Part shown: piece by piece, positions 274 to 52,229 of the stretch
Position numbering within the stretch: the first letter of the stretch is position 1
Layout of the letters: each line of letters starts with the position of its first letter
From: Methanosarcinales archaeon
Lineage (GTDB): Archaea; Halobacteriota; Methanosarcinia; Methanosarcinales; Methanocomedenaceae
Reading direction: 5' to 3'
Length of the DNA stretch: 64,000 nt
Assembly (NCBI GenBank): GCA_030627385.1
Contig: DAOUSF010000001.1
Location: 12,077 to 76,076, forward strand
Translations under genes and position numbers: made by a program
Notes under the pieces: generated by a model
The model's input: the letters and a program-made list of their open reading frames with translations, nothing else
What the model was told of the DNA's origin: nothing
The model's database searches: none

Positions 274-855
274 TTACGCCTTTGTATGGCTCATTATCAT
301 CTGGTAAATAGAGTGATCTTCCATTTCAAGTGCATCCTCTATCATAAGCTCGGTAACAAAATCAGATAATCCTTTACCTGTATCGTGATCCCAATCATTA
401 AGGCTCCTGTATACAAAACGTGTTACCATTTCCTTTATGGTATCCTCTTTGACAGGCAGTCCTTCTTCAATCAAGCTCACTACCTGTTCGGGATCTGATT
501 TAAGAGGTGTTCTGTATAGTATCCATATAGCAATGATATTCTTCTTTATGGTCAAAGATGTTACAATGCCTCTTGGTAGACGGACTGATATTTTGATATG
601 TTGGGAAGTGGGCAAGGACTTAACAAGAGTGCTTTGAACAGTGGAGCCGGTGGAGCCCGTGGAGCCCTGAAGGTCTGGTGGTGCGGAGTCTTGATTGTAT
701 TGCTCCTTGAAACCCTTTTTATAGTCCGACTGTTCTGGGACAGGTGAAGTGGCAATGGTCTTAACAATGGTCTTAACAACCTTCTTACGGTTGTTTGCAC
801 GGCTGACTGGGTTTTGGAATTCAAACTTGTTTTGGAGATTGTTGATACTGTTCAT
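274..855 (-). CDS. hypothetical protein; possible ribbon-helix-helix-like DNA binder
   Basis: 193-aa minus-strand ORF with AAGGAAGG upstream. It contains a GSTGSTGST repeat, and the ISVRLPRGIVTSL segment resembles an RHH beta-strand. It abuts the large non-coding region. Confidence 0.55.
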   Translation of the reverse strand: MNSINNLQNKFEFQNPVSRANNRKKVVKTIVKTIATSPVPEQSDYKKGFKEQYNQDSAPPDLQGSTGSTGSTVQSTLVKSLPTSQHIKISVRLPRGIVTSLTIKKNIIAIWILYRTPLKSDPEQVVSLIEEGLPVKEDTIKEMVTRFVYRSLNDWDHDTGKGLSDFVTELMIEDALEMEDHSIYQMIMSHTKA

Positions 856-3115: not shown

Positions 3116-3625
3116 ATGGGAAATCTTAAGGATGTTGTAACTGTTGATTGTAAGTCATTTGGCAAAAAAAGTGCTAATTTTAAAAAATGTTTGACCTGTG
3201 AGGATGAGGTGAAGAAGGCCTGCCAGGATGCTTTTATTGCATTAAGTGCCGAAAAAACTGAAGTAAAAGGAACTGAAGTAAAAGAAATTACCAATAATCA
3301 GGAGAATCAAAAGAATCAGGAGATTAAAACAATGAAAAACTTGAAAAATTCCACAAATTCAACAACTGCCGCAACAAATGCAAAAATTGGAAAAGCCCAG
3401 ATGGTTAAGGATATGATCTTTAGCCTCGCAAGAAAAGCCGAATATACTCGGAAAGAATTGGGACAGGCTATTCAAGCTTCCTTTCCTGAGTATAAAAATT
3501 CTACTTTGTCCACTTATATCTCTGATTCGTTTAATGTGAAATATGCAGGAGTTACAGGATGTGGCGCCCATCGGATGTTGTCATATGTCCAGACTGGCAA
3601 GAAAAAAATCATAGTAGTAAGATAA
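3116..3625 (+). CDS. hypothetical protein; C-terminal domain paralogous to the 32379..32948 protein (putative DNA-binding)
   Basis: RBS AAAGGAG. The C-terminus ...YTRKELGQAIQASFPEYKNSTLSTYISDSFNVKY aligns with ...HTKKEIVDEVAPKFPDVTVSTISTFVQDCMNVKY of the 32379 ORF. Confidence 0.7.
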   Translation: MGNLKDVVTVDCKSFGKKSANFKKCLTCEDEVKKACQDAFIALSAEKTEVKGTEVKEITNNQENQKNQEIKTMKNLKNSTNSTTAATNAKIGKAQMVKDMIFSLARKAEYTRKELGQAIQASFPEYKNSTLSTYISDSFNVKYAGVTGCGAHRMLSYVQTGKKKIIVVR

Positions 3626-7119: not shown

Positions 7120-7148
7120 TTGACTATTACGTTTTTTTATGTAATAAT
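7120..7148 (+). promoter_or_regulatory. class-1 phage promoter, copy a
   Basis: TTGACT-17 nt-(TGT)AATAAT followed by GTGTATG. It belongs to a five-member near-identical family, consensus TTGACTTTTAYGT...TTATGTAATAATGTGTATA. Confidence 0.7.
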
Positions 7149-7197: not shown

Positions 7198-8361
7198 ATG
7201 CCCACCTATGAAGCAAAGGTAAGTGATTACAAGTGGACCAAATTCAAAAAAAAGTTCAAGGATTACAAAAAGAGGGCTGAAAAACTTGGCTTTCCTGAAC
7301 CTACTTACAAGATCATCAAAGATTTTGGAGAGCCTGCAAAGGGTTGTACTCCTCTTTCCCATGTTTATCGTTTCAGGATTCTTGAAATTACCTATGAAAT
7401 GCCGATCATTGATGGCTGGGAAGTAGTAGGAAACAGAGAGAGAATTGACGGGAAAATCTTTACCAACGTAGTAACGGGTGATGATTGCACTAACTTTCAT
7501 AAATCAGATCTAATAGGGTGCGGTCATTGCCATACAAATCGGTATAGGAACAAGTCAATCTTGCTGAAAAACAAAGTAGATACCATTATGGAAGTTGGAT
7601 CTACATGTGTAATTGACTTTTTTGGACACAAAGTAACCAACCTTGATTGGTTCGTGGAAAGGCTCTTTGAAGGTAATGAGTGGAGCAACGTCGGCGGTGG
7701 AACATATAGTTTCAATCTTGAGCAGGTTCTTGAATATGCATCATTCTATATACGAAAATTCGGCTATCAAAAGGCCAGCGGAGAAGGTGAAGGAACATAC
7801 AATACCAAAGAAAGAGTTTGGGATTGTCACCTTGAACCTCATTTCAGGAGTACACAATTTATCAAACCTGATGTGTCCGTGGAAGATGAAAAAATGGCTC
7901 TTGATACGATATGTCACTGGAAGGGGATGAATGCTGAGGAGAATTACTCCAATTCATATATTACCAATCTGATAAAAATTTCCCAGGAAGAAACAATGAA
8001 TCCCAAATTACTTGGGTATGCAGTATCAATGGCATCCTCTTATCAAATGTATCTGGAAAAAAGGGCCGCAATGAATGCTCGTATTCAGCTTTCCAAATAT
8101 CAAGGACAGATCAAAGACAGAATAAAGGGTGTTCCTGTCAAGCTGACATTCAAGAAGGGATGGGAAACAATGTTCGGATGGACTGACCTGATGTCATTCA
8201 CTGACCTTGATGGAAACGTGTATGTCACATTCTATAAAGGAACAAAGTCAACTCCCGAACAAGGACAGAACATTGTACTTGATGGCACCATTGTTGATCA
8301 TACGGAATATAAAAACGTGGAACAAACAATCGTTAACAGAATAGCCTGGAGGAAAGTTTAA
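7198..8361 (+). CDS. hypothetical protein (387 aa) with Cys/His cluster and OB-fold-like C-terminus
   Basis: RBS AAAGGAGG. It has a GCGHCHTNRYRN...GSTCVIDFFG segment. The OB-like reading of the C-terminus GVPVKLTFKKGW...NIVLDGTIVDH is only an impression. Confidence 0.7.
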   Translation: MPTYEAKVSDYKWTKFKKKFKDYKKRAEKLGFPEPTYKIIKDFGEPAKGCTPLSHVYRFRILEITYEMPIIDGWEVVGNRERIDGKIFTNVVTGDDCTNFHKSDLIGCGHCHTNRYRNKSILLKNKVDTIMEVGSTCVIDFFGHKVTNLDWFVERLFEGNEWSNVGGGTYSFNLEQVLEYASFYIRKFGYQKASGEGEGTYNTKERVWDCHLEPHFRSTQFIKPDVSVEDEKMALDTICHWKGMNAEENYSNSYITNLIKISQEETMNPKLLGYAVSMASSYQMYLEKRAAMNARIQLSKYQGQIKDRIKGVPVKLTFKKGWETMFGWTDLMSFTDLDGNVYVTFYKGTKSTPEQGQNIVLDGTIVDHTEYKNVEQTIVNRIAWRKV

Positions 8362-14336: not shown

Positions 14337-14365
14337 TTGACTTTTACGTTTTTTTATGTAATAAT
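14337..14365 (+). promoter_or_regulatory. class-1 phage promoter, copy c
   Basis: TTGACT-17 nt-(TGT)AATAAT followed by GTGTATAC. Confidence 0.7.
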
Positions 14366-25128: not shown

Positions 25129-25827
25129 ATGTTTATTGACATTAATAATCTTTCTATATTGGATTTAACTGGCCTACGGGAAATTAAAACCAATATAGAA
25201 AGAGAAATTAAACTAAGGGAAAAAACATTAAAAGAAAAAAGAAAAAAGATTCAAGAAGAAAAAGATAAAATAACCATAAAAAAAGAAAATAAAACAGAAA
25301 AAAAACGGCAAGACTGTAAAAAACACAAACTGTATCTTCCCCTCCCCATAAATGGACATTATTGTAGATGTCTGTCATACCTTCCTTACCTACTTAGTCA
25401 AGATTGGACACATCTGTATAAAGATGCCTGGTTAGATGATGAAAAAAAATACTATGTATATGCCCACACAAATCCTTTAAAACAAAATACACACATAACA
25501 AGTAGGTTAATAATACCTGGTATTCCTTTTTATATAGGAAAAGGTACAGGAGATAGAGCATGGGATTTAAAAAGAAATCAAGGGCATGGTAAAGAAATAA
25601 AAAAAATATCACTATTTGTACCTGAAAACGATATTGTTTTTATAGTTAAAGATAATCTTACAGAGGAACAGGCATTTATATTAGAATCAAAACTTATATA
25701 TTTCTTTGGTACTATATATGGATTAAGAAAAAAAGGTATATTATATAATTTAAATGAAGAAAGAACTCCTTTGTTTAGTGAACAAAAATTTGTGTTACGA
25801 AAAAAACAAAATAGGGGTGTGGTATGA
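25129..25827 (+). mobile_element. GIY-YIG family (homing) endonuclease-like gene
   Basis: YYVYAHTNP...IPFYIGKGTGDRAWD resembles the YVY...PFYVGKGxGxR GIY-YIG core. The N-terminus is Lys-rich. RBS AAAGGAG. Confidence 0.55.
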
Positions 25828-27194
25828 AACATGGTGAAGAATTTAATCCTAGAATAAAGTTCTACGGACTTTTTGTTCCTAATTGCATAGCTATGAATGA
25901 TAAAATACTTGATGCTCCTAAGTTACTGTTAGGAAGATTAATGCAGTTTGCAGGAAAAGATGGAAAAGCTTATCCTACTGTGGGCAGATTAGCTATGGAG
26001 CTTGGATGGAGCAAAAAGAAAAGTCAAAGAAATATAAAGGTCCTGAAAGACATGGGCTTAATAAATGTAAGTAAATTAGAGCCTGACAACCCTATCTCTC
26101 CGAATATATACGCATTCCCATATAGCCCACTATACGACTTTGAACCGGGTGACAATGTTGACACCGGGTGTGATGGAGAAGACGATGGAACCTCTATACC
26201 GGGTGACACGGATGTCACCGGGCCGGTGTCACGGATGTCACCACATATAATAGAATCAGAAATAATAGAATCACCTATTTGTAATTCTTCTAAAGAAGAA
26301 TATGCTCCTGCGGAGCCTACCTCTGCGAGTGATAGTCCTCTTGATTACAATGGCTTACTTTGTTCAATGTGTAATGAACCTCAATTCTCTTGTAAATCAG
26401 GAGATACCTGCAAGAATGGGCATGGAGGAGTTGAAGGCATTGAAAAAGAAGAAATTGCTCCTATATCAATATTTCCTACTAAGTTAAAAAGGATTATTAA
26501 AACTCCGAATCCTTTCAAATATTCCCCTAAGACATTGAAAATCATTGTTCATTGGGAAAAACGTGGAGGTAAAGTTCATTATAAAACAACATCAGGCAAT
26601 GGGCTTGATAAAATCAAAAATATGATTGATTATGAATTATTAACTCCTGGATTAAACTCTTGCTATTCCCGACATACGAAAAATGATGACCTTAAAAAGA
26701 AACAGTGGACTGTAAATGAAATTTTGCAGTCAATTGATTTTTATACCCAAACTTTGAACAAAGATGTTTCCAAAATGTATTTCAGTCAGTTTGTGTGGAT
26801 AGAGTATTTTGGACCCGCATCCCGTCATCTTAGAAACCACTCACCTTTGCTTGACAGCTTTAGAAATCTTCCCGATGAAGCTACAGAAAAATGGCAAGCA
26901 TTGCTCAGGAAGAAATTCAATAAACTGTTTCCTTCAGTTGATATCAACTCCACAGTTCTTCTCAATACTGCCGCCTATCTTGTTCAACAAGATATAGAGT
27001 TTAAGGTTGTTGATAGTGGAGTACTTGGCAATCATATGGTGAATCTATATGTTGCCTATATGAGAAGGATAGTAACTGCTAAAGGTGATTATGAATCCTT
27101 AAAATATATGTCGGGACAAAAGAATCTGGATGATTTCGTCACATACTTCCTAACTAAATCAGTAAAGCTGAGAAAGAGGTCAAAACTTGCTTGA
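25824..27194 (+). CDS. putative replication initiator / helicase loader (N-terminal winged HTH)
   Basis: AYPTVGRLAMELGWSKKKSQRNIKVLKDMGLINV reads as a DnaD/replisome-organizer-like HTH. It lies directly upstream of the DnaB-like helicase and overlaps it. Confidence 0.5.
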   Translation: MKHGEEFNPRIKFYGLFVPNCIAMNDKILDAPKLLLGRLMQFAGKDGKAYPTVGRLAMELGWSKKKSQRNIKVLKDMGLINVSKLEPDNPISPNIYAFPYSPLYDFEPGDNVDTGCDGEDDGTSIPGDTDVTGPVSRMSPHIIESEIIESPICNSSKEEYAPAEPTSASDSPLDYNGLLCSMCNEPQFSCKSGDTCKNGHGGVEGIEKEEIAPISIFPTKLKRIIKTPNPFKYSPKTLKIIVHWEKRGGKVHYKTTSGNGLDKIKNMIDYELLTPGLNSCYSRHTKNDDLKKKQWTVNEILQSIDFYTQTLNKDVSKMYFSQFVWIEYFGPASRHLRNHSPLLDSFRNLPDEATEKWQALLRKKFNKLFPSVDINSTVLLNTAAYLVQQDIEFKVVDSGVLGNHMVNLYVAYMRRIVTAKGDYESLKYMSGQKNLDDFVTYFLTKSVKLRKRSKLA

Positions 27195-30443: not shown

Positions 30444-31556
30444 ATGAAAGCATCCATAACTAATGTAATAAAATTTGAGACCGCTCACCAGTTGACTGAC
30501 TCTTACTCTGAGGAAGATAATACCTATACTTGCCCTGTGTGTAATAAGGAAGGAATAAAAAGCATATTTTCTCATTGCAGTAATACAGGTGATAGTGTTC
30601 ATTTAAACTGGATACAAAAATTAAACGATGAAATAAATGAAGAAATTGACAATCTTTTTCCTGATTATATGCAAATGGAAATAAATTTGAAATTGCAGGA
30701 GATTTTACCCACCCTGTCTCCTAATATTATTGCAAATAAGATCAGAAGCAGAGCAAAGGAAACAGGTATAAATACCAGAAAAGTATTAGGGAAATGTAGA
30801 ACTGGGTTAAATAATCCTGTACATACGAAAGGAACAAAGGATAAAATATCTAAATCAGTCAAGAAGAAGTGGGAAGAAGGTTCTTATTCAGATAGAATAA
30901 ATGGAATGCAAGGGAAATTAGGGCCTTTATCAGGAAGATACGATCCATCAATTCATACCATAGAACATAAAGGTCTATATTATTTTAATTCTTTTTTATC
31001 TGAATTTCAAGATATTTCAGTGTGTTCAAGATGTAAGGGTGTTGAAAATAAAATTAATGTACACCACATTGACGAGGACCATAAAAACTTTCTACCGTCA
31101 AATCTTGAGCCCTTGTGTGTGCTCTGTCATATGTCCAATCACTACAAACAAGTTAAGAAGCCATTCGTTACTATAGGAAAAGAATTTACATTTGCGGCGG
31201 CACATCAATTACCAAACCACCAAGGGATGTGTCAATATCTCCATGGACATGAATGGAAGCTTAGAATTGAGTTGAAAAAGAGGGTAGATTTTAAAACAGG
31301 AATGGTAATGGACTTTTCTGATTTGAAAAAAATAGTGAAGGAGCATGTAATATCTATACTTGATCATAACACCTTAAATGAGATAATATATAATCCGACA
31401 GCCGAGAATATCCTAATATGGATCTGGGAAAAACTAATGTTTGAAGGCCTGCTCAAGGGAATTTATAAAATTCATTTATGGGAATCATCCGATAGTGTAG
31501 CAGTACTTGACCAGAAAGGGATGTTATCCGTTTTTACTGAAAAAGGAGTAAAATAA
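30444..31556 (+). CDS. queD: HNH/NUMOD endonuclease module fused in frame to 6-carboxytetrahydropterin synthase QueD
   Basis: Residues about 240-370 form a full QueD (EFTFAAAHQLPNHQGMCQYLHGHEW, LDHNTLNE, PTAENI). Residues 18-239 carry NUMOD3-like GLNNPVHTKGTKDKISKS and HNH NVHHIDEDHKN...CVLCH. Residues 1-17 repeat the QueD start (VIKFETAHQL). Confidence 0.8.
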   Translation: MKASITNVIKFETAHQLTDSYSEEDNTYTCPVCNKEGIKSIFSHCSNTGDSVHLNWIQKLNDEINEEIDNLFPDYMQMEINLKLQEILPTLSPNIIANKIRSRAKETGINTRKVLGKCRTGLNNPVHTKGTKDKISKSVKKKWEEGSYSDRINGMQGKLGPLSGRYDPSIHTIEHKGLYYFNSFLSEFQDISVCSRCKGVENKINVHHIDEDHKNFLPSNLEPLCVLCHMSNHYKQVKKPFVTIGKEFTFAAAHQLPNHQGMCQYLHGHEWKLRIELKKRVDFKTGMVMDFSDLKKIVKEHVISILDHNTLNEIIYNPTAENILIWIWEKLMFEGLLKGIYKIHLWESSDSVAVLDQKGMLSVFTEKGVK

Positions 31557-32215
31557 TGTTTGTAGCTGATATATTTGAATCATTCCACGGAGAAGTGAAT
31601 GGACATCACCAAGGACGAATTGTCACATTCATACGCCTCTCTGGATGTAATCTTAGATGTTCCTATTGTGATACCAAAGAAACATGGGATAAACTTTATG
31701 GGGAAAATCTTAGCCCTCTTCTAATCCTTAACAGAGTTAAAGAATTAGGACATAAACACGTTTGTATTACAGGTGGCGAGCCTTTACTGGATAAGGCGGC
31801 AGTACTGGATTTAATGCATATATTATCAGAGGAAGGGTATCGCATATCCGTTGAAACAAATGGCACTATCAGTATCACTCCTTTTGTTAGATTTGTGGAT
31901 AGCTTTATTATTGATTGGAAAATACCCCCCAGACCGTTTAAAGGAAAGAATCTATTCCTTGAATCTAATTTGGTAAATTTAAGGAATACAGATATTATCA
32001 AGTTTGTGGTTATGGATGAAGATGATGTTATACTGGGAATAAAACTAACGGAAATAATTATCAGAGACAAATATAAATCAAATACTCTGGTTGCTTTTTC
32101 TCCTATTATTTCAGAAGATTTTTTACCAAAGCACTTAGCAAACGCATTGCTTTACCATAAAGCTAAAAACTGTATTTTATCTGTCCAGATTCATAAACTT
32201 ATTGATTTCAAATAA
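31556..32215 (+). CDS. queE: 7-carboxy-7-deazaguanine synthase QueE (radical SAM)
   Basis: FIRLSGCNLRCSYCDT radical-SAM cluster motif and ITGGEPLL. The start is coupled to the queD stop. Confidence 0.85.
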   Translation: MFVADIFESFHGEVNGHHQGRIVTFIRLSGCNLRCSYCDTKETWDKLYGENLSPLLILNRVKELGHKHVCITGGEPLLDKAAVLDLMHILSEEGYRISVETNGTISITPFVRFVDSFIIDWKIPPRPFKGKNLFLESNLVNLRNTDIIKFVVMDEDDVILGIKLTEIIIRDKYKSNTLVAFSPIISEDFLPKHLANALLYHKAKNCILSVQIHKLIDFK

Positions 32216-32279
32216 TGGTCCTGTGCAACATGCCGATATTACACGGATTTAATCTTAATGATTTTTTATTAAAAAGTGC

Positions 32280-32308
32280 TTGACTTCTCATTCATTTTTC
32301 ATTAAGAT
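32280..32308 (+). promoter_or_regulatory. class-2 promoter, copy f
   Basis: TTGACT-17 nt-TAAGAT, preceded by the A/T tract attttttattaaaaagtgc. Confidence 0.55.
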
Positions 32309-32378
32309 GTATTTAAATTGTTCAAGAGTGAAAAAGCAGTTCAAGAGTAAATTTAATTAATTTTTAAGGAGAAAGAAA

Positions 32379-32948
32379 ATGGCAAAACTGACAGACGCCC
32401 AGAAAGCAGAAATGGCAAAATTAAAAGCGATTCCCAATGATTTGATGAAATTATCCATTGCATCCCTCAATACCTTCTTGACCAGCAAGGAAAAAGACAA
32501 AATGCCCAAAGCAAAATCCAAGGGCGAAGCCGTAAAACTTTTTACCGATGCAATTGCAGGCCTGCTTGAAGCTGACCTGGGTGAAGAAATTCCGGAAGAT
32601 GTTGCAACTTTTTATAACGACCATGTTGTGGGTGACGATGCAGAGGCTGGTGATACAGGTGCTGATGATGGAAAAGCCGCCCCCAAGCCCAAAGCTGACA
32701 AGACCAAAACAACCAAACCCCGGAAAACCAAAGCGGAAATACAAGCCCGGTATGATGCAATCTCTGCCATGATCGTCACAGGTAAACATACCAAAAAGGA
32801 AATCGTGGATGAAGTTGCTCCCAAGTTTCCGGATGTCACGGTCAGCACCATCTCCACATTTGTGCAGGACTGTATGAATGTTAAATACAACAAATTGCCC
32901 AAGTTGACGGTTAAGGCCGAAGACGGAAAACTCTCCTTCGCCAAATAG
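32379..32948 (+). CDS. Lys/Ala-rich putative DNA-binding protein (paralog of the 3116..3625 C-domain)
   Basis: RBS AAGGAGAAAG. Central AAPKPKADKTKTTKPRKTK tract. The C-domain is shared with the 3116 ORF. The gene has its own promoter and terminator. Confidence 0.75.
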   Translation: MAKLTDAQKAEMAKLKAIPNDLMKLSIASLNTFLTSKEKDKMPKAKSKGEAVKLFTDAIAGLLEADLGEEIPEDVATFYNDHVVGDDAEAGDTGADDGKAAPKPKADKTKTTKPRKTKAEIQARYDAISAMIVTGKHTKKEIVDEVAPKFPDVTVSTISTFVQDCMNVKYNKLPKLTVKAEDGKLSFAK

Positions 32949-32985
32949 TCCTGCCCCTATGACATTTAATGAGTAACCCCGAAAA

Positions 32986-33028
32986 GGCGGAGCGTCCCTC
33001 AATTCCAACAGCTCCGCCTTTTTTATTT
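32986..33028 (+). terminator. rho-independent terminator
   Basis: GGCGGAGC (32986-32993) pairs with GCTCCGCC (33011-33018) and is followed by TTTTTTATTT. Confidence 0.8.
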
Positions 33029-33043
33029 CAAAAGGAAAACGAT

Positions 33044-33718
33044 ATGAATGGAGCCGTTGTATTGTTAAGTGGAGGACAAGATTCTACCACGTCATTATTT
33101 TGGGCTTTGTCCAAATATGATGACGTTTTTGCCTTGATTCTTGACTATGGACAGAGGCACAGGATAGAAATAGAATCAGCAAAGAAAATTGCTGAATTGG
33201 CTGGTGTCGAGTATATGGTAATTGACCTTAACTTCTTTAAAGAAATAGGCAACTCTGCCTTGATTGGGGATGTATCAGAAGTAAATGAACCGCATTCCTG
33301 TGATTCAAATCTGCCCGCATCATTTGTCCCTGGAAGAAATCTGATTTTTATCACTATCGCCTCTATGGTAGCATATAAGAGAGGACTGAACGCTGTTGTT
33401 ACTGGTGTTTGCCAAACAGATTATTCGGGATATCCTGATTGCAGGAACGCCACAATGAGGGCATTAAATGAGGCAATCGTGAAGGGCTTGGATAAAGCTA
33501 TCTTGATCAGTACACCTTTGATGTGGTTGACAAAAGAGGAAACTGTCAGACTGGCTCAGTCATTTGAAGGCTGTATGGAAGCTCTGGCATATTCTCATAC
33601 TTGTTATAATGGAGAGTATCCTCCCTGTATGCATTGTCCCTCATGCTGTTTAAGGACAAGAGGATTCAAAGAAGCAGGTGTAAGGGATCCACTGATTGTG
33701 AGGTACTATGATAAGTAG
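33044..33718 (+). CDS. queC: 7-cyano-7-deazaguanine synthase QueC
   Basis: MNGAVVLLSGGQDSTT (SGGxDS PP-loop). C-terminal Cys cluster CYNG..PPCMHCPSCCLRTRGF. The ATG at 33044 lies downstream of the terminator. Confidence 0.9.
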   Translation: MNGAVVLLSGGQDSTTSLFWALSKYDDVFALILDYGQRHRIEIESAKKIAELAGVEYMVIDLNFFKEIGNSALIGDVSEVNEPHSCDSNLPASFVPGRNLIFITIASMVAYKRGLNAVVTGVCQTDYSGYPDCRNATMRALNEAIVKGLDKAILISTPLMWLTKEETVRLAQSFEGCMEALAYSHTCYNGEYPPCMHCPSCCLRTRGFKEAGVRDPLIVRYYDK

Positions 33719-34785: not shown

Positions 34786-36699
34786 ATGAAAACTCCAGGC
34801 AGAGAAGATGTTTCTCTAATGCTTGATTCCGGTGCTTTCTCTGCCTGGATGAAACAAGAGGAGATATCAGTCGAGGACTACGGTAAGTTCCTTCAGCAAC
34901 ATGGAAATGATTTTGATCTGATTGTTAACCTTGATGTAATTCCGGGCAAATTCGGGCAGAAGGAAATACCCGAAGCTGAAATGATCAAGTCCATTGAACA
35001 AGGCTGGAGAAATTATTACAGACTAATTGAAATGGGAGTCCCTAAGAATAAGCTCCTTCATGTATTTCACCAAGGAGAGCCCTTTCACTATCTTGAAAAA
35101 ATGGTAAAGGAGATGGAATATATAGGAATCTCTCCTGCAAATGATAGAACCACAAAAGAAAAGAAAAAGTGGCTGGACGAGTGCATGAAATATATTGTGG
35201 ATAGTAAGGGAAAAGCCCAAATCAAATTCCACGGGTTCGGTATGACTTCTTTGCACTTGATCTGGCGTTATCCTTGGTTCTGTATGACAGAAGAGGATCA
35301 TGAGGTATTAACAAAAACTGGATGGAAATTTAGAGAAGATTTATCCATAGGGGAGGAGGTATTAACATTCGATAAAGGAGCATCTAAGTGGGAACGTATT
35401 TTAGATATTCCTACATTTCCAGTAAAAGATATTGATATCAATGTAATGGAAAATAGAAACTTTTGTGCCAAAGTTACAGATAATCATAATTGGATTACTT
35501 GTCCTCAATATAATAGAGGAAATAATTGGAAGTGGAAAACAACACACACACTGAACTCCAATGATTGTATACCTAGAATAGGAAAATACACTTTCCCTGA
35601 AACTAAAATATATATGGACAGTTTCATTGAATTATTGGCTTGGTTTTGGACTGATGGAACAATCAACAAAAGGGAAAAATATAATCAGGATAGTATTTCT
35701 ATTTATCAATCTGAAAGTGCTAATTCCGATAAATGTAAGATGATCCAGGATTTGTTAAATTACAGTGGAGAACCGCATTGTAAAAGTGTGTCAAAAGAGG
35801 ACAATTTAGCAAATTTTGAAATGTATGGAGACATTACTAAGGCTATATTAGAATTTGCTCCATTTAAAAAACTACCTTTAGATTTTATATTTGATCTTAC
35901 TAAGGAACAGTTACAGAAATTTGTAGATATTTGTGTCCTGGCTGATGGCACAGACACAAAACTGGTAAGACGTGATTCATTTAATATTACAGTTTCAAGA
36001 CAGGTGAAAAAAGACAATCTTGAGGTTCTCCGTATAGCTTGTTTATTGTTGGGTATACCTACTTCTATTTCTTATGGAAACCAAGGGTATAAGACTTTAC
36101 AATCATCCTCAGTTGATTATGTGTATAATCATTCACTTAAAAAACACAAGGAAAAATATACAGGAAATATATGGTGTTTACAGGTGCCAAGTAAAGCTTT
36201 TTTTACAAGATGTGACAATAAGATATATGTCACAGGAAACTCAATTGACAGTACTACATGGGTTTTGGTTGGTGCTATGGGGGGTGTTATGATGCCTAAA
36301 ATTAAGTATGGCAGATACACTTACAGGCAATCACCAATCATACTTCCCATCACCACAAAGAACGACATAAAAAAACCTTTCCATTATCAAAATCTATCAG
36401 AAATAGAACAAAGCAAGGTGCAACGATACTTTAATGATCGTGGCTTTGATGTCAAAACCCTGGAAACGGAAGGAATGGAGAGAGACAGAGCCAACATGAG
36501 GTTCTTTCTTGATCTTGAACAAACCTTGACTGATACAAAGGTGTACTTTGCTGGTAACTTTCCCATGCTTCATAAGATGGAGAGAGAGTTCAAGACAATG
36601 GATTTGGCTTTAAAAATAACTGATAAGTGGAGAAGGCTGGGCTCTTATTATCACCAGAACTATCTCCTTAAATTACTTGATCTAAAACGGAGGAAATAA
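34786..36699 (+). CDS. dpdA: DpdA-like DNA-guanine transglycosylase candidate interrupted by an intein
   Basis: The extein (about 317 aa) has LMLDSGAFSAW, GISPAN, FHGFG and YPWF|SIDSTTW. It lies immediately downstream of folE-queF. The assignment rests on context plus recalled TGT/DpdA-like motifs. Confidence 0.65.
   Translation: MKTPGREDVSLMLDSGAFSAWMKQEEISVEDYGKFLQQHGNDFDLIVNLDVIPGKFGQKEIPEAEMIKSIEQGWRNYYRLIEMGVPKNKLLHVFHQGEPFHYLEKMVKEMEYIGISPANDRTTKEKKKWLDECMKYIVDSKGKAQIKFHGFGMTSLHLIWRYPWFCMTEEDHEVLTKTGWKFREDLSIGEEVLTFDKGASKWERILDIPTFPVKDIDINVMENRNFCAKVTDNHNWITCPQYNRGNNWKWKTTHTLNSNDCIPRIGKYTFPETKIYMDSFIELLAWFWTDGTINKREKYNQDSISIYQSESANSDKCKMIQDLLNYSGEPHCKSVSKEDNLANFEMYGDITKAILEFAPFKKLPLDFIFDLTKEQLQKFVDICVLADGTDTKLVRRDSFNITVSRQVKKDNLEVLRIACLLLGIPTSISYGNQGYKTLQSSSVDYVYNHSLKKHKEKYTGNIWCLQVPSKAFFTRCDNKIYVTGNSIDSTTWVLVGAMGGVMMPKIKYGRYTYRQSPIILPITTKNDIKKPFHYQNLSEIEQSKVQRYFNDRGFDVKTLETEGMERDRANMRFFLDLEQTLTDTKVYFAGNFPMLHKMEREFKTMDLALKITDKWRRLGSYYHQNYLLKLLDLKRRK
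35281..36240 (+). mobile_element. intein (320 aa) with LAGLIDADG homing-endonuclease domain in the DpdA-like gene
   Basis: It starts with Cys (CMTEEDHEVLTKTGW). Block B is TDNH. LAGLIDADG motifs are LLAWFWTDGT and CVLADGT. Block F/G is IWCLQVP...KIYVTGN, followed by Ser as the +1 residue. Confidence 0.8.
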
Positions 36700-36893: not shown

Positions 36894-37910
36894 ATGGATA
36901 GGAAAAAGTTACTGGATGTCTTAAAGAAAGTTAAACCCGGAATAGCAGAAAAGGACATAGTTGAGTCAATGACCTATTTCTATTTTTCTGGGAAAGAAGT
37001 TGTAACCTATAATGACAAGATATCAATCTTGCATCCTCTTGAAACTGACTTCAATCTGTTTGTGAAGGCGGCTGATCTATACAAGATTGTCTCCTTGTCA
37101 AAAGCGGATGTTCTTAAAATTGAGGAAAAAGGGAATAATCTCAATATCAGATCACCCAAAATGAATGTCAATCTCACTACTATTATTGATGAGGAGATAG
37201 TTGATAGGATTGGACTGATTGATAAATCCCTTAAAGATGTTAAGTGGAAAAAACTCCCTGCAAACTTCATGGAAAATGCTGTTCTTTGTGCATTTGCGGC
37301 GGCCAAGGTAGAGGCTGAATCAACTCTTTCCTGTGTATATTTCAACGGAGAGAACAGCATGGCGTTTGATAATGACCAGTTTGCTTCTGCCAAGCTTGCT
37401 GGCAAGGTAGATGAAATGTTCATCAAAGCTTCCCAGCTTTCAAACCTTTCGTCAATCAATCCTACGATGTATGTCCGAACAAAAGCTTGGATCCATTTCA
37501 AGAGTACAGATGGATGCATCTTTTCTATAAGAAGAATTGATGGAGACTTTCCCCAAAAAGACATGGAAGATGCTCTTGACTTTGAGGGAAGGACTGTTGA
37601 TCTATCAGAGGATATACTTGAAGGAACTGATATTGCTTCCATCTTTGTTGATACAATGGAACCCGTGGTTACTATCAAGATCACAAAAGGCAGATGTATT
37701 GTATCGGTAAAATCTGAAGGAGGGGGATCACAACATAGATCCAAGATCGAATATGAAGGTGCGGATATAGAGTTCAACTTAAACCCTGATTTTCTAAGGG
37801 AAATGCTAAATCATTCCACGACCATCACCATTGATGATGAGTCCACAAAGGCAAAGTTGTCCACTGAAAACTTCACTATGATGACCAGTTTGAAATCAAT
37901 ACAGGAGTAA
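36894..37910 (+). CDS. putative sliding clamp (DnaN-like)
   Basis: 338 aa with RBS AAAGGAG, sitting between the modification genes and the polymerase. Size and alternating beta-pattern fit a clamp. No diagnostic motif was seen. Confidence 0.45.
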   Translation: MDRKKLLDVLKKVKPGIAEKDIVESMTYFYFSGKEVVTYNDKISILHPLETDFNLFVKAADLYKIVSLSKADVLKIEEKGNNLNIRSPKMNVNLTTIIDEEIVDRIGLIDKSLKDVKWKKLPANFMENAVLCAFAAAKVEAESTLSCVYFNGENSMAFDNDQFASAKLAGKVDEMFIKASQLSNLSSINPTMYVRTKAWIHFKSTDGCIFSIRRIDGDFPQKDMEDALDFEGRTVDLSEDILEGTDIASIFVDTMEPVVTIKITKGRCIVSVKSEGGGSQHRSKIEYEGADIEFNLNPDFLREMLNHSTTITIDDESTKAKLSTENFTMMTSLKSIQE

Positions 37911-37914
37911 TTCT

Positions 37915-40900
37915 ATGGGATTTTTCACTAAATCCCAGTTATCTAAGCGGTCCGAGGTCAAGGTTGATGTCAATGACTTGGAATCGGATTGCTTGGCTTG
38001 TGGGTTATTCAAAGACACAATCCATCCAAAGATGGAATACTCAGGACAAGGTCAAAAGAAGATTCTCATTATAGGTGAATTTTCAAGTGACGAAGATGAC
38101 CAATATGGTCAACATTTCTATGGAGAACGAGGCGATCCATTAAGACAGCAATTAAGGTTCAATAATGTCAATATGAACAAGGATTGCTGGAAAGTTAACG
38201 CTGTTCGATGCAATCCTGATGGACTTAATTTACCCAGTCCTGGCCAGGTTCAAAACTGCTTCCCGTATATCAAAAAAATGATCAAACAGTTAAAACCTAA
38301 ATTGATACTTCTTCTGGGTGATTTGGCTATTTCTTCATTGTACGGAAAGGATTTTTCAAACAGAAGCATACACAGATGGAGAAAGTATGTTATACCCGAT
38401 CAAGAGTTCAGTTGTAATGTTATTCCTCTATATCATCCCTATCATCTTTTCCGTCAATCCAAGAAAAAGAAGAAGAAAGACAAAAACCTCGAAAGTGTAT
38501 TCAATCGGGATCTAAAATTTGCTCTCAGACAGTTGGAACGCCCGGTTTTAACGACAAAGAACTATGAAAGCAATGTCACACTGTTAACAGACTTCAACCG
38601 CGTTAAAAAGCTGTTAAATCGAATCCTCAAGCGTAAATCAAAAATCTATTTTGATTATGAGTCCACAGGACTAAAGCCTTTCAGAAAAGGCCATAAGATT
38701 GTGACCATTGGTGTTGCTGTATCTGCCTCAAAAGCGTTTGCGTTTCCTTATCAGTGGAAAAGTTTCTGGACTCCCTCTGAATTAAAGGTTATAAAGAAAC
38801 TCTGGAAAAAGATTCTCAGGGATGATGAAATCCTAAAGATGGCGCACAATTGCTTTTCAGGTGATACAAAATATATAACTAAAGAAGGATTGAAGTCCTT
38901 TATTGATACAGAGAACACTACCCAAACAGTGTGGACAAAGGAAGGATGGAAGGATGCTAAAGTTAAATGTTATGGAAAAGATCATCTTTCTAAAATAGTA
39001 GTAGGCCCTGAACTTAGAAGTAGATCCAAGATTAAAAGAACTATTCACAGCACTGAAAATCACCGTTGGATTGTAAAAAGAAAATTCAATCATTGTTACC
39101 CTAATCCCTCTACCTTTAAAACTATAGAGGTTACCACAGACCAATTGAAATTAAGGGATAATATAATTTCGGAAATGCCCGAATTCACAATTGATCAAAA
39201 TACAGAGGCTTTTAGACATGGATTAATCCTTGCGGATGGAGGTCGTTCCAGTAAACATTCCCTTCATTTTCAAATCAGACTATGTGGTAAAAAAGAAAAG
39301 TATAAAGACATTTTTCCTAAATATACGTACCCCCTTTCTGCTAATGGTGATCCGGTTGTGAATTACTATAAAGCCTCTTGTGATATGAAGAAAGTTCCTG
39401 AGAATCCTACGGCAGAGTATGTAGCAAACTTTATAGCAGGATGGGATGCTGGTGACGGCACAGATTCAGCAACTGGAAGATCAAGAGTCATAACTACCTT
39501 TAATAAAGAACACGCTACATGGTTAAAGGACAATGCAGAACTTGGTGGATGGAAATGTACTGGATTTTCAGAACATATTAATTCGAAAGACTTTGATGGG
39601 AATTATATAGACCCGCACCCTTACTGGATGATAATATTAACAAAGGAGAAAGTAAACTGGACAGTAAAAGAAATAAAACACAAGGATAGATACGAGAAAG
39701 TGTACTGTGTTTCTTTACCAAAAGAGGAATTTACTCTCCAATATGGTATTTACACAAGGAATTGCAAATTTGAGCAAGTGTGGTCAAAGGTTATGTTCAA
39801 TGTAATGCCTAAGATTCACTTTGATACTATGATGGCAGAACATATCTTGGACAATAGATCAGCCTCAACAGGTTTGAAATTTCAGACGTTCATAAGGTTC
39901 GGTGTTAAGCCCTATGATAAAGATATTGCTCCCTTCCTAAAAGCAAAGAATGGAGAATTTAATACCATAGAAAAAGCACCATTCAAAGAGTTATTAACAT
40001 ACAATGGACTTGACTGCATTTATGGATGGATGGTATACGATAGACAGATCCTTGAAATAACCAAAAGACGGGACGTAAAGGATGCAATGAAAAGCGTTCT
40101 CGGTGAGGTTGATGCTCCCGAAAAAAGCCTACTTGGTGCTTACAATTTCTTCATGCGTGGTAACGAACAGATGGCTATTATCCAGCTTAACGGGATCAAT
40201 ATGGATTCCATTTATTATCAAAAAGCTGAAAAGAATCTGGAAAAGAAAGTCAAGGAGTTAAAGCACGGATTGGAGAATGGTCGTGAAGCGGAAATGTTTC
40301 ATAAAATGTTCGGACGACCAATCAGGATCACATCCAATCAAGATCTCGGAAAACTATTCTATGAAGTTCTGGGAAAAGATCCCGTCTATACTGCTAAAGG
40401 GGGGTATAAGACAGATAAAATGACTCTGGAGAGTTTGAATCTACCTTATGTAAAAAACCTCCTTAAAATGAAAAAGTACGAGAAAGCCAAGGGAACTTAT
40501 CTTGGTCAGTTTGCAAGAGAGATATTTAGGACAAAGATGTATCCATTCTGGGATCTTAATATTCCTGTCAGTTATAGGAGTTCATCATCAAAACCAAACT
40601 TTCAGAATATTCCTAAACGTGATGCAGAGATAAAGGCAATCATTAGAATGGGAATTGTTCCGAAAAAGGGATGTGTGTTAAGTGAAATTGATTTTTCAGG
40701 TGCGGAGGTTATAACTTCCGCCACTTACCACAAGGATCCAACATTTATTGCCTACTTGACAGAAAAAGATGCATCAGGTGAGTTGATAAATGATATGCAT
40801 AGAGATAATGCAACTGACCTTTTGATGTTACCTCCTGATATGCTTGAGAATCCTAAGTATTCAAGGGACCAGAAAAAGTTAATTAAAAAGATTCGATTCT

Positions 40901-41592
40901 TTGCCAAGAACAATTGGACTTTTGCTCAGTTCTACGGTGATTGGTTTGGTTCGTGTGCTCCTATGTTCTGGGAGAATGTTATTGAGGTGGACTTAGAACT
41001 TCCTAATGGCATGACTTGCCGAGAATGGCTTGAAGAAAAAGGCATCTATGAACTCGGAGAAGTAAAAGATGGAACTCCCACAGAGGGAAGCTTCATGGAG
41101 CATTGTGCCCATGTCCAAGAAAAGATGTGGAATGAACGATTTCCTGTATATACTCAGTGGAAGAAGGATATAGTTGAGAAATATAGAGAACATGGTTTTA
41201 TTCCCAATCATTTCGGTTTCAGATTCACAGGATATATGTCCGATAATCAGTGTACAAACTATCCCATCCAGTCAGCAAGTTTCCATCTGTTGGTTCATAC
41301 TCTGATTGAGGTACAGAAGTTCATTGATAAAAATAACCTGAAAACAAAGATAGTTGGGCAAATTCATGATAGTATTATCAGCAATGTTCCTGAAAATGAG
41401 ATCAAATTCTACCATGCAGGTGTTAACAAGATTGTAAAAGGCCTGATGAATGAATTTAAGTGGTTGATAATTCCAATGGAAATCGAAGCTGAAATAACCA
41501 AGTTAAGAGAAGATGGAGGAAACTTTTCTGACCTTAGAGAAGGTGACCCTGATAATATGGATTATGAAACAATCTGGAAGGAGGCAGCATGA
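37915..41592 (+). CDS. family A DNA polymerase with N-terminal UDG-family-4-like domain, 3'-5' exonuclease domain and an intein
   Basis: UDG-like IIGEFSSDEDD..FYGERGDPL, PLYHPYH. Exo I FDYESTGL and Exo II AHN|CKFEQVW. Pol motifs A (IDFSGAEV), B (RFFAKNNWTFAQFYG) and C (QIHDSI). Confidence 0.9.
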   Translation: MGFFTKSQLSKRSEVKVDVNDLESDCLACGLFKDTIHPKMEYSGQGQKKILIIGEFSSDEDDQYGQHFYGERGDPLRQQLRFNNVNMNKDCWKVNAVRCNPDGLNLPSPGQVQNCFPYIKKMIKQLKPKLILLLGDLAISSLYGKDFSNRSIHRWRKYVIPDQEFSCNVIPLYHPYHLFRQSKKKKKKDKNLESVFNRDLKFALRQLERPVLTTKNYESNVTLLTDFNRVKKLLNRILKRKSKIYFDYESTGLKPFRKGHKIVTIGVAVSASKAFAFPYQWKSFWTPSELKVIKKLWKKILRDDEILKMAHNCFSGDTKYITKEGLKSFIDTENTTQTVWTKEGWKDAKVKCYGKDHLSKIVVGPELRSRSKIKRTIHSTENHRWIVKRKFNHCYPNPSTFKTIEVTTDQLKLRDNIISEMPEFTIDQNTEAFRHGLILADGGRSSKHSLHFQIRLCGKKEKYKDIFPKYTYPLSANGDPVVNYYKASCDMKKVPENPTAEYVANFIAGWDAGDGTDSATGRSRVITTFNKEHATWLKDNAELGGWKCTGFSEHINSKDFDGNYIDPHPYWMIILTKEKVNWTVKEIKHKDRYEKVYCVSLPKEEFTLQYGIYTRNCKFEQVWSKVMFNVMPKIHFDTMMAEHILDNRSASTGLKFQTFIRFGVKPYDKDIAPFLKAKNGEFNTIEKAPFKELLTYNGLDCIYGWMVYDRQILEITKRRDVKDAMKSVLGEVDAPEKSLLGAYNFFMRGNEQMAIIQLNGINMDSIYYQKAEKNLEKKVKELKHGLENGREAEMFHKMFGRPIRITSNQDLGKLFYEVLGKDPVYTAKGGYKTDKMTLESLNLPYVKNLLKMKKYEKAKGTYLGQFAREIFRTKMYPFWDLNIPVSYRSSSSKPNFQNIPKRDAEIKAIIRMGIVPKKGCVLSEIDFSGAEVITSATYHKDPTFIAYLTEKDASGELINDMHRDNATDLLMLPPDMLENPKYSRDQKKLIKKIRFFAKNNWTFAQFYGDWFGSCAPMFWENVIEVDLELPNGMTCREWLEEKGIYELGEVKDGTPTEGSFMEHCAHVQEKMWNERFPVYTQWKKDIVEKYREHGFIPNHFGFRFTGYMSDNQCTNYPIQSASFHLLVHTLIEVQKFIDKNNLKTKIVGQIHDSIISNVPENEIKFYHAGVNKIVKGLMNEFKWLIIPMEIEAEITKLREDGGNFSDLREGDPDNMDYETIWKEAA
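38851..39762 (+). mobile_element. intein (304 aa) with LAGLIDADG domain inside the Exo II motif of the polymerase
   Basis: It starts CFSGDTKYITKEG. Block B is TENH. LAGLIDADG motifs are GLILADGG and FIAGWDAGDGT. It ends VYCVSLP...GIYTRN, followed by Cys as the +1 residue. Confidence 0.85.
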
Positions 41593-41617: not shown

Positions 41618-41672
41618 GTTAATGATTTATCATTAAAAAATACTTGACTTTTCATTGAAATTAGAATACTGT
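41618..41672 (+). promoter_or_regulatory. class-2 promoter with upstream palindromic box, copy g
   Basis: GTTAATGATTTATCATTAAAAAA (palindrome AATGAT-TT-ATCATT), then TTGACT (41644)-17 nt-TACTGT. Confidence 0.6.
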
Positions 41673-43713: not shown

Positions 43714-44634
43714 ATGAGTTTCAGGGACAGAATGAAACAACGCAAAGGTGGATTGAAAAAGAGGCACAATACGGCACCCAAGAAAAGTGGAGGCAGGTAT
43801 CCAACAGTATTTAATAAGAAGAACATTCCCGAAGGAGTGAACTTCTTTTCCTGTAAAGAAGGACAGCACATTGTTGATATCCTCCCCTGGGAAGCCGGGC
43901 CTGATATGCCTCTTGATGATCAGGGCCAGCCTGTCGTGGAAGAAGGCGGATTTGACTATGTTCTGGATTTGTATGTCCATCAGAATGTGGGTAAGATGCA
44001 GAAGCCCTACGTTTGTCCTTTTGAAAACTTTGGTGAATCATGTCCCATTTGTGAGTACATTAAAGCGAACAGATTGCCCAAAAAAGAATGGAGCAAGATT
44101 CGGGCAAAAAGGCGTTCCATATATCTGTTATGGGACAGAACTACTCCAGAATCGGAGAAAAAAGGTGTCCAGATTTTTGATGCCGCTCATTTCTTCATGG
44201 AAGAAAAAATCCTCGAAATCGCAAAGCTTCCCAGAGGTGGAGGATATGAAGTCTTTTCCGATCCTGATACAGGGAAAAGTGTATGCTGGACTCGTAAGGG
44301 TTCGGGGCAGGAAAATACACAGTACTTGGGCCACAGATTCATTGACAGGGAAGCACCAATCCCTGAAAGGATCCTTGACCAGGGCTTTGCTCTTGACCAG
44401 TGTATCAATATGCACCCTACTTATGAAGAAATCGCAGAAGAAGCGAAGGAATTACTTAGTAAGGGAAATCAAGCAACAGAAACGGATGACGATGTACCAT
44501 TTAAGGGTGATGAAGATATTCCGGATGATCATGTTCGGACGAATCGAAACCAAAAACAGGACAAAAAGGCGGGGGCAAAAAGTCCCAAAGCTGGCTTGAA
44601 TAAACGTGTGGTCCGCAGAGTTGTGAAAAAATAA
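43714..44634 (+). CDS. gp32-like ssDNA-binding protein
   Basis: YVCPFENFGESCPICEYIKANRL...KRRSIYLLW parallels the T4 gp32 region [24 protein letters not shown]...KRKTSYWAN. It has an acidic TDDDVPFKGDEDIPDD tail. 306 aa. Confidence 0.7.
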   Translation: MSFRDRMKQRKGGLKKRHNTAPKKSGGRYPTVFNKKNIPEGVNFFSCKEGQHIVDILPWEAGPDMPLDDQGQPVVEEGGFDYVLDLYVHQNVGKMQKPYVCPFENFGESCPICEYIKANRLPKKEWSKIRAKRRSIYLLWDRTTPESEKKGVQIFDAAHFFMEEKILEIAKLPRGGGYEVFSDPDTGKSVCWTRKGSGQENTQYLGHRFIDREAPIPERILDQGFALDQCINMHPTYEEIAEEAKELLSKGNQATETDDDVPFKGDEDIPDDHVRTNRNQKQDKKAGAKSPKAGLNKRVVRRVVKK

Positions 44635-45830: not shown

Positions 45831-45847
45831 AGCCCTTGGAGAGAAAC

Positions 45848-46438
45848 ATGACTGGAAAGAAAACTGTAGTAAAAGACAATGGCGCCTTGAGCAGAATAAT
45901 CAGGGTAATGGTATCAAGACAAATTGATTATGCAAAGGTCAAAATTGAGTTTGAAGTGACTGAAAGCCTGTCGGAAGATCAGGAATGTGTAGAGGCGTTG
46001 ACAGGACTCTGTGAAGAATTGGAAACCCTTGCTGATAAGCGTATTGCCACTTATGATGAAGATTATGATCCCGATTCTGAACCCGATGCGGGAACAGACA
46101 AACCCGATTCTGAACCCGATTCTGAACCCGATGACACAGGTGACGACACGGGTGATGACACAGGAGCCGAGGAAATTGAACTTTCTGAGGATCTGATCAA
46201 TTCAATGAAAAAGGATGAGTTGATTGAACTCTGTGAAACTACAGAAGGCCTGGAAAATGTCGATACTTCCAAAAAAGTTACCCTTCTTAAAATGCTCATT
46301 ATTGATGCCCTTTTTGATGAAGAAGGGGGAGATGATACAGGCGGAGAAGATGACAACGGCACCGAAGAAGGTGATAGTGATGCCGGTGACAAAAGCGGTG
46401 ACGATGAGTGGCAGGATGATGACTGGCAAGATGATTAA
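45848..46438 (+). CDS. highly acidic repeat protein
   Basis: PDSEPD x3, DDTG x3 and a DDEWQDDDWQDD tail. ATG at 45848. Confidence 0.6.
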   Translation: MTGKKTVVKDNGALSRIIRVMVSRQIDYAKVKIEFEVTESLSEDQECVEALTGLCEELETLADKRIATYDEDYDPDSEPDAGTDKPDSEPDSEPDDTGDDTGDDTGAEEIELSEDLINSMKKDELIELCETTEGLENVDTSKKVTLLKMLIIDALFDEEGGDDTGGEDDNGTEEGDSDAGDKSGDDEWQDDDWQDD

Positions 46439-52174: not shown

Positions 52175-52229
52175 GTTAATGATTTATCATTAAAAAACGC
52201 TTGACTTTATTTGTCGTGTGTAGTACGAT
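52175..52229 (+). promoter_or_regulatory. class-2 promoter with upstream palindromic box, copy h
   Basis: Its 23-nt box GTTAATGATTTATCATTAAAAAA is identical to the one at 41618. It is followed by TTGACT (52201)-17 nt-TACGAT. The next ATG (52236) lies 7 nt after the -10. Confidence 0.6.

Follow-up and report, generated by a model that had tools for sequence, protein, structure and literature searches.

X, a predicted winged-helix protein encoded ahead of queC, as a candidate DNA-binding accessory of phage 7-deazaguanine DNA modification

Phage 7-deazaguanine DNA modification is currently described as the work of biosynthetic enzymes together with the DpdA transglycosylase, joined in some phages by tailoring enzymes. 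In the bacterial Dpd system, DpdA is accompanied by DpdB, a ParB-like ATPase that acts as a non-biosynthetic accessory, is encoded beside the preQ0/DpdA genes, and has been proposed to help base insertion. Those phage DpdA proteins that have been studied function without a DpdB-like partner (PMC10516641, Table 2), and DpdM is a family of DUF3109/YkgJ-like preQ1-DNA methyltransferases with a CxxxCxxCC motif (PMC10516641). Here, we describe a gene in a 64,000-nucleotide (nt) stretch of contig DAOUSF010000001.1, referred to as the window, and we name X the 189-amino-acid (aa) product of its open reading frame (ORF) at 32379..32948. From the comparison of related loci, we propose tentatively, with confidence a little short of even, that X is an abundant two-domain DNA-binding accessory of a phage 7-deazaguanine (predicted dPreQ1) DNA-modification module and a candidate for a missing partner of this pathway.

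X resembles DpdB as a non-biosynthetic protein encoded beside deazaguanine and DpdA genes. Unlike DpdB, it has no nucleotide-binding motif and no sequence relation to that protein, and the analogy, the closest one found, is functional and not one of homology. The likeness to DpdM lies in the C-terminal winged helix of X, which is joined to a CxxCxxCC domain in two other proteins (the L066 protein and P0115), whereas X itself has no such domain. No match was found between X and the described accessory families DpdB, DpdC, DpdL, DpdM, DpdN, ArcS, and Gat-QueC, and no description of an X-like gene was found in the deazaguanine literature searched. The deazaguanine operon is of a known kind; what appears to be new here is its dedicated winged-helix leader protein, which belongs to an undescribed family.

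In a deep clade of uncultivated phages that is widespread in the environment, members of this family stand ahead of queC throughout, and they bear signs of excess production. Should X assist in the insertion, reading, or protection of the modified base, the pathway would gain a new component that is not an enzyme, and a protein domain that binds deazaguanine DNA would provide a practical handle. If it does not, the family would still be a new winged-helix domain family that is reused by phages and by defense-type nucleases and ATPases.

Linkage of X to the deazaguanine cluster

The gene for X lies where the initial annotation had placed it, inside a deazaguanine cluster with queE upstream and queC downstream. 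These three genes were identified as follows, with matches given as expectation values (E) or bits.

31556..32215, plus strand: queE, a radical-SAM 7-carboxy-7-deazaguanine synthase; the best NCBIfam matches are all QueE (E 1.6e-39, below trusted cutoffs)
32379..32948, plus strand: coding sequence of X, 189 aa with an ATG start, with the marks of purifying selection
33044..33718, plus strand: queC; Pfam QueC at E 2.4e-70 and TIGR00364 at 231.8 bits, above cutoff

The full pathway gene set was found around X, comprising FolE, QueD, QueE, QueC, QueF (preQ1 synthase), and a DpdA homologue. QueD, QueC, and QueF scored above the NCBIfam cutoffs, FolE and QueE had their own-family models as best matches, and the DpdA homologue matched phrog_887 at E 1e-53 through its uninterrupted orthologue in the related locus L003. 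No DpdM-like protein was detectable in the cluster of the window.

Related loci were fetched from IMG/VR and Joint Genome Institute (JGI) metagenomes by sequence motif and not by genomic context, together with an exact-protein look-up, and the Que proteins were placed in them by tblastn. The loci L001-L075 came from sediments and anaerobic digesters. There were 45 distinct loci with enough downstream sequence. It was noted that queC stood directly 3' of X in 37 of these 45, at a gap of at most 153 nt in 34 of them and of 554-646 nt in three. The usual order was DnaB-QueD-QueE-X-QueC-FolE-QueF-DpdA-clamp-PolA, and the DnaB and PolA proteins of the que-linked loci were only 25-35% identical to those of the window. 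The pair of X and queC was found intact where folE had moved in front of X (L055, L061/L062) and despite a 5.6-kb insertion between queE and X (L022). The exceptions were L026 (two paralog-type copies), L071 (by recombinases), L064, L045, L049, L074, L010 (a HerA fusion), and L065/L066 (a DpdM-like fusion). Because X adjoins queC in so many distinct loci, a link to modified DNA, which the initial annotation had offered as speculative, gains comparative support.

Further features of these loci were recorded. One JGI contig of 165,133 nt carried the X locus three times (L033, L034, and L035) at about 69.6-kb spacing, which suggests that a phage genome of roughly 70 kb was assembled as a concatemer. 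In the window, QueD (30444-31556) possessed a 240-aa N-terminal extension with Cys/His motifs and weak HNH matches (YajD, E 8e-4; IscB, E 4e-4). The DpdA homologue (34786-36699, 637 aa) and PolA (37915-41592, 1225 aa) exceeded the length of the L001 and L003 orthologues by about 300 aa, and each aligned to these as two collinear blocks; this pattern points to intein-type insertions in both genes.

Domain architecture, relatives, and fusions of X

An AlphaFold2 model of X, built with a 61-sequence alignment, reached a mean predicted local distance difference test (pLDDT) score of 89.6 and was divided into three parts.

32379..32633, plus strand: acidic N-terminal four-helix domain, aa 1-85 (helices 6-17, 20-36, 48-64, and 73-83; pLDDT 87-97)
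32634..32729, plus strand: disordered linker, aa 86-117, with an acidic Asp/Gly/Ala-rich part followed by a Lys/Pro/Thr-rich basic tract
32730..32945, plus strand: basic C-terminal winged-helix domain, aa 118-189 (AlphaFold2, pLDDT 91-98)

In the model, the C-terminal domain consists of three helices (118-134, 139-149, and 155-164) and then a two-stranded beta hairpin (177-179 and 184-187), which is the layout of a winged helix. Structure prediction, proposed in the initial annotation for this domain, thus modelled a winged helix confidently. The C-terminal 70 residues are far more conserved than the remainder of the protein, and the near-invariant residues are T160, D164, N167, K169, Y170, and F187. 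A signature, ST-x-x-T-x3-D-x2-N-x-K-Y, runs from the end of helix 3 into the loop after it. A Foldseek search against the PDB returned mostly winged-helix nucleic-acid-binding domains (ROK, Fur/PerR/Nur, ROQ, STIV F93, PadR, the winged-helix domain of chromatin assembly factor 1 (CAF-1), and forkhead), none of them significant; the best E was 0.76 and the top matches lay at about 1, so the list indicates a fold class and no specific family. Taken with the conserved basic arm described below and with fusions to DNA-handling proteins, the modelled winged helix makes a DNA-binding role for X plausible.

The family alignments of the N-terminal domain display the motifs L-N-x-x-L and IP-x-D-V-x-x-F-Y-N. 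A profile of this domain (A7) found nothing at E <= 1e-3 among 5.8 billion proteins, and partners of the N-terminal domain were not indicated by this search. The linker falls below a pLDDT of 50 at residues 88-100, and its length and composition vary widely among relatives. The tract that the initial annotation had called histone-H1-like, AAPKPKADKTKTTKPRKTK, forms residues 100-118 and is a 19-residue Lys/Pro/Ala/Thr tract that is disordered, poorly conserved, and often mixed with long acidic runs in relatives. At the end of the linker, directly before the first helix of the C-terminal domain, KPRKTK is conserved in close relatives.

X gave no family above cutoff in Pfam, PHROG, NCBIfam, or PADLOC, and its profile, compared with all PDB sequences at E up to 10, found no histone and no family match. 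A profile of the shared C-terminal domain, searched against 1.84 billion cluster representatives, retrieved 333 proteins at E <= 1e-3, almost all of them metagenomic. Most family members are 170-260 aa long and follow the layout of X: the N-terminal domain is helical, the linker is charged and of low complexity, and the winged helix forms the very C-terminus. Across 185,579 GTDB species genomes, the family was found on two contigs of metagenome-assembled genomes only; because both belong to the same phage clade, it is not a cellular family. No member was encountered in 50,697 deposited phage records by tblastn of X and of the distant member P0121, and a megablast of 12 kb around X against the same records gave no match. 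IMG/VR scans with a close-family alignment (A3) and with P0009 returned no relatives. The X family is undescribed and apparently restricted to phages.

A paralog within the window shares the C-terminal domain of X.

3116..3625, plus strand: paralog with an N-terminal Cys4 motif, a low-complexity linker, and the same winged helix (about 3398-3622)

The two proteins aligned by BLASTP at E 1e-8 (36% identity over 45 aa), and their families aligned profile to profile with 95.4% probability (E 1.8e-8, 51 columns). The common domain and the position of the paralog as the first gene of the long rightward gene block agree with what had been claimed for them.

The winged helix was also encountered as a fused domain. 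Two CxxCxxCC (YkgJ/DpdM-like) proteins, P0115 and the L066 protein (7278-8180), carry one or two copies of it, and the L066 fusion lies inside a que cluster of different gene order. It was further found at the C-terminus of a phospholipase D (PLD)-type nuclease of the DrmC/NgoFVII-like kind (L076, 38-847) and, after a low-complexity linker, at the extreme C-terminus of the HerA/DUF87 ATPases P0058 and P0150. The gene for a HerA fusion in L010 (4330-6789) lies beside genes for a Cas4-like nuclease, a trypsin-like protease, and VapBC. These defense-type fusions are on short contigs of unknown host, and the winged helices fused to HerA and PLD proteins could be sensor domains of defense systems. 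In the nuclease, ATPase, and DpdM-like fusions, the winged helix extends DNA-handling modules or takes their place. Since all of the fusion partners act on DNA, DNA binding by the domain is supported. A domain exchange was noted in L004, which is closely related (its PolA is 75% identical to that of the window). In this locus, an N6/N4 DNA methylase occupies the place of queC-folE-queF-dpdA (region 1085-2820), and its X retains the class-2 promoter described below and the N-terminal domain (71% identical) while the C-terminal domain is exchanged.

Several described proteins share parts of this architecture. The linker histones H1 and H5 likewise place a winged helix beside a disordered Lys/Pro/Ala/Thr-rich tract, with abundance expected, and forkhead domains, which share the H5 fold, are among the weak Foldseek matches of X. 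Unlike in H1/H5, the basic tract of X is short, poorly conserved, and precedes the domain; X has an additional acidic four-helix domain, is phage-encoded, and is operon-linked to que genes. The Linker_histone Pfam model matched neither X, the paralog, nor any of 61 family members, and no H1/H5 chain was found in the PDB comparison. The models Bac_DNA_binding, Hc1, and HC2 did not match X, and among the 61 relatives one HC2 match (E 0.008) and two HU-DNA_bdg matches were attributable to low-complexity linkers. The basic tract seen initially is present, and its H1 likeness is an analogy of composition and architecture only.

FtsK gamma, the C-terminal winged helix with which an FtsK/HerA-type translocase reads DNA, has a parallel in the X domain at the extreme C-terminus of P0058 and P0150. 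It differs in that no Ftsk_gamma Pfam match was obtained, the signature motif is different, and X has no motor domain. The large subunit of CAF-1 likewise has charged low-complexity regions (Lys/Glu/Arg-rich and acidic) followed by a C-terminal winged-helix DNA-binding domain; weak Pfam Cac1_C matches were obtained in 5 of 61 family members, together with a weak Foldseek match (5ejo). Unlike X, CAF-1 is a eukaryotic histone chaperone. The matches are below significance for X itself, and the likeness is most likely a convergence of architecture. The sole Pfam model touched repeatedly was DUF7669 (PF24706), at E 0.03 for X, 0.005 for the paralog, and 0.001 for a HerA fusion, and at E < 0.01 in 9 of 61 family members. 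The scores of X (15 bits), the paralog (17.4), and the HerA fusion (19.7) all lie below the 23-bit gathering cutoff, which places them outside the family as defined; DUF7669 is itself uncharacterized and was not mentioned in the literature searched.

Coding status, promoter, and terminator of X

Eight homologues of X were found in metagenomes, at 58-87% identity. Over the final 78 codons, the differences from three relatives at codon positions 1/2/3 were 5/4/40, 13/13/39, and 6/5/32, and by this measure X is a real gene under purifying selection. Long ORFs extend across 32451-33008 in two plus-strand frames and all three minus-strand frames. Because the codon-position differences mark the plus frame as coding, the antisense and other-frame ORFs are shadow ORFs, and a 185-aa antisense ORF was ruled out as a real gene on this basis. 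The additional frames are open because the composition of X is stop-poor: its GC content is 0.45-0.47 against 0.29-0.40 in the neighbors, and its GC content at third codon positions (GC3) of 0.47 is the top value among about 40 window genes. In related loci, the GC3 of X exceeded the mean of its module neighbors in 18 of 22 cases and was the module maximum in 12 of 22. The five open frames and the differing composition that had been remarked on initially are therefore both real, and the composition is a matter of codon and amino-acid bias without foreign origin. It was also considered that X might be a horizontally acquired moron, given its odd composition; this was ruled out, as X is syntenic in all relatives and the GC3 excess recurs there.

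The signals around the gene, and the two other copies of its promoter type (labelled class 2), are as follows.

32257..32275, plus strand: A/T-rich, UP-element-like upstream element of the class-2 promoter, AATGATTTTTTATTAAAAA
32280..32308, plus strand: predicted sigma70-type core promoter, a scan match with -35 TTGACT (32280-32285), a 17-nt spacer, and -10 TAAGAT (32303-32308)
32320-32329 and 32339-32348, plus strand: GTTCAAGAGT, present twice as a direct repeat in the 5' leader, a possible operator or RNA element
32366..32371, plus strand: Shine-Dalgarno sequence AAGGAG, 7 nt 5' of the ATG and invariant in five relatives
32981..33028, plus strand: intrinsic-terminator-like hairpin with a T-run (13-bp stem at 32981-33023, 17-nt loop, T-run at 33019-33024)
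41621..41650, plus strand: second copy of the class-2 promoter, an extended-motif match
52178..52207, plus strand: third copy of the class-2 promoter, an extended-motif match

The window contains three copies of the wider class-2 motif, AATGATTTNTNATTAAAAANNNCTTGACTT (at 32257, 41621, and 52178), where shuffles predict 0, and because of this excess the class-2 type is a real family. In the other two copies, the upstream element is a perfect dyad, TTAATGAT-TT-ATCATTAA. Although the remainder of the leader has diverged, five relatives share TTATTAnAAA..TTGACTT..TTCATTAAGAT without change, and the -35 TTGACTT and TTCATTAAGAT are invariant across the window, L001, L003, L004, and L005. Both hexamers and their flanks are unchanged in relatives, and the hexamers, the 17-nt spacing, and the conservation together are those of a sigma70-type promoter. 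The initial annotation had read a class-2 promoter at 32280 followed by a strong ribosome-binding site and a 189-aa ORF, and each of these elements was recovered. A TATAAT-like or extended -10 promoter sequence was found 5' of X in most loci.

Within the leader, a TTTGAGA box related to GTTCAAGAGT folds into a 5'-proximal hairpin in L001, L003, L004, and L005. Folding of the leader is weak in the window, where the hairpin of these four relatives is not convincingly formed. A search of the whole 64-kb window with Rfam found no family, and a tRNA scan of it found none. A second recurrent promoter type, TTGACnnTTACGTnTTTTTATGTAATA, was observed in the early region (7120-7146 and 14337-14363, with variants near 10225 and 20740) and is distinct from the class-2 type.

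The hairpin downstream of X has a folding energy of -21.7 kcal/mol (z = -5.6), none of 200 shuffles folds as well, and no other hairpin-plus-T-run on either strand of the window is as strong. A stable hairpin followed by a U-run is the form of a rho-independent terminator, and six T follow the stem. The claim of a textbook terminator stands as regards a strong, non-random hairpin with a T-run; the 17-nt loop exceeds the usual length, which makes the efficiency of termination uncertain. It was noted that queC has a ribosome-binding site and that the 95-nt spacer between X and queC contains no promoter-like sequence, so the terminator must leak. The hairpin, placed before queC, thus probably acts as a leaky attenuator. 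A gap of only 0-33 nt, with no terminator, separates X from queC in about 25 loci, whereas a strong hairpin was encountered every time the spacer reached at least 85 nt. The hairpins that follow X are unrelated in sequence between lineages (window, L001, L017, L024, L046, L054, L059, and L061), and L003 has no hairpin at the equivalent place.

We infer that X leads the queC operon and that the hairpin sets its output well above that of the enzymes. The description of the gene as a self-contained cassette was consequently an overstatement, as queC has no promoter of its own and most relatives have a gap of 0-33 nt without a terminator. X is probably highly expressed, to judge indirectly from the recurrent terminators and from the recurrent GC3 excess in relatives. 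A second hairpin-plus-T-run, the second strongest in the window (-18.8 kcal/mol), was observed at 33081-33133 in the 5' part of queC, about 60 nt past the terminator of X, and it may be a second attenuation point or a product of chance.

Proposed role of X and competing explanations

In the mechanism that we propose, the KPRKTK basic arm and the winged helix would bind double-stranded phage DNA, and the acidic four-helix domain would contact proteins, whether X itself or DpdA, the Que enzymes, or the replisome. The class-2 promoter would drive X and, by read-through of the leaky terminator, the que enzymes. X would be in large excess over these enzymes, since one promoter would drive both and the enzymes would be reached only by read-through. 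X may then load or organize DNA for the exchange of guanine for preQ1 by DpdA, or hold the pathway on replicating phage DNA. Its role would be comparable to that of the accessory DpdB of the bacterial Dpd system, and X itself would take no enzymatic part in the pathway.

Several considerations weigh against this proposal. Nearly all of the que-linked loci belong to one phage clade with a globally conserved gene order, and the adjacency of X and queC may for this reason be inherited and not selected. Cultured deazaguanine phages have no member of the X family (tblastn, 50,697 phage records), which indicates that X is dispensable for the chemistry of the pathway. The domain is also found away from que genes, in the paralog at 3116, in the two copies of L026, by the recombinases of L071, and in the defense-type fusions. 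The exchange in L004 is a single case, and one recombination with its left end in the linker could explain it. The fold matches, all at E about 1, speak for a fold class alone, and DNA binding, abundance, and an effect on modification are each inferred for X.

The best-surviving alternative, which we regard as unlikely, is that X is a generic phage nucleoid or histone-like protein that coats or compacts phage or host DNA non-specifically, with its position reflecting inherited synteny and no tie to deazaguanine. The strong expression signals and codon bias would suit such a protein, as would the acidic and basic low-complexity linkers of the relatives, and the Lys/Pro/Ala/Thr-rich tract by a winged helix comprises the same parts as a linker histone. 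It would also accommodate the domain outside que contexts and the cultured deazaguanine phages that manage without X. A purely electrostatic coat, however, would be unusual with near-invariant residues that are polar and non-basic (T160, D164, N167, and Y170, at the end of helix 3) and with a basic tract that is the least conserved part of the protein, and no H1, HU, IHF, or Hc1 model matched. The adjacency of X and queC outlasts local rearrangements, and a link to modification is favored by the DpdM-like fusion and by the domain swap in L004. The abundant DNA-coating protein suggested in the initial annotation is accordingly supported, indirectly, in its abundance (by the terminators and the GC3 excess in relatives), while coating itself was not borne out.

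Rather unlikely as well is a function of X as a winged-helix transcription regulator that would control its own gene or set the timing of queC-folE-queF-dpdA, or of the class-2 (middle) promoters in general, through the leader boxes or the dyad. The recognition helix is near-invariant while promoters and leaders differ completely between relatives, a misfit with the co-evolution expected of an operator, and the dyad is degenerate at the promoter of X and L001 and L003 lack it. Operon repressors, in addition, do not typically have very high expression signals or long disordered linkers of acidic and basic composition. On the other side, winged-helix regulators (MarR, PadR, Fur, and ROK) are the top fold matches, X is the leading gene of its operon in almost every locus and has a promoter-like TATAAT or extended -10 sequence upstream, and the paralog, as the first early gene, occupies a typical place for a regulator. 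Candidate sites are likewise present, as the leader carries the direct repeats of GTTCAAGAGT (and of TTTGTTTGAGA, twice, in L004), and class-2 promoters bear the dyad.

We consider it improbable that X is a reader or shield, with a winged helix that recognizes 7-deazaguanine DNA, such that X coats this DNA as protection from modification-dependent nucleases or tags it as DNA to be packaged or transcribed. The conserved, polar, pocket-like motif D-x2-N-x-K-Y after helix 3, the strict linkage to que genes, and the signals of high stoichiometry could be read in this way, as could the fusion to a DpdM-like enzyme, for which preQ1-DNA must be the substrate. The fusions to a defense-type HerA and a DrmC-like PLD nuclease are what would be expected of a type-IV-like sensor domain. 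Plain DNA binding explains the same fusions, however, and the support is entirely indirect; no que genes lie near the early paralog or near the copies in L026 and L071, and the defense-type fusions are on short contigs whose host is unknown. A joint reading, to which we likewise give little credence, would have X coat or mark dPreQ1-DNA, helping DpdA or shielding the DNA, while the same domain grips preQ1-DNA for DpdM-like enzymes and was captured by bacteria as a sensor on HerA and PLD proteins. If that were true, the HerA-ATPase and DrmC-like PLD proteins would be a type-IV-like restriction aimed at deazaguanine phages.

A role of X as single-stranded DNA-binding protein (SSB) or replication initiator was ruled out, since the window already has genes for both, one for an SSB at 43714..44634 and one for an O/DnaD-like initiator at 25824..27194. 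A DnaB-like helicase, a sliding clamp (36894..37910), and a clamp loader are likewise encoded there.

Two further observations concern the replication genes and the region ahead of the paralog. The gene at 45836-46438, which adjoins those of the SSB and the UvsX-like recombinase, encodes a 200-aa protein that has no PHROG match and whose C-terminal tail, ...DDEWQDDDWQDD, is acidic and contains Trp. An array of about 13 iteron-like 20-bp repeats in tandem, roughly CCTATGATAACATTGTTtag, was found at 1189-1455 (and 2068-2108). It lies in a gene-poor region of 2.2 kb that is bounded by the leftward gene 274..855 and the paralog gene 3116..3625, and inverted copies of AACAATGTTAT lie about 700 bp beyond the array. 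The iteron array is a candidate origin or protein-binding array, possibly for a winged-helix protein.

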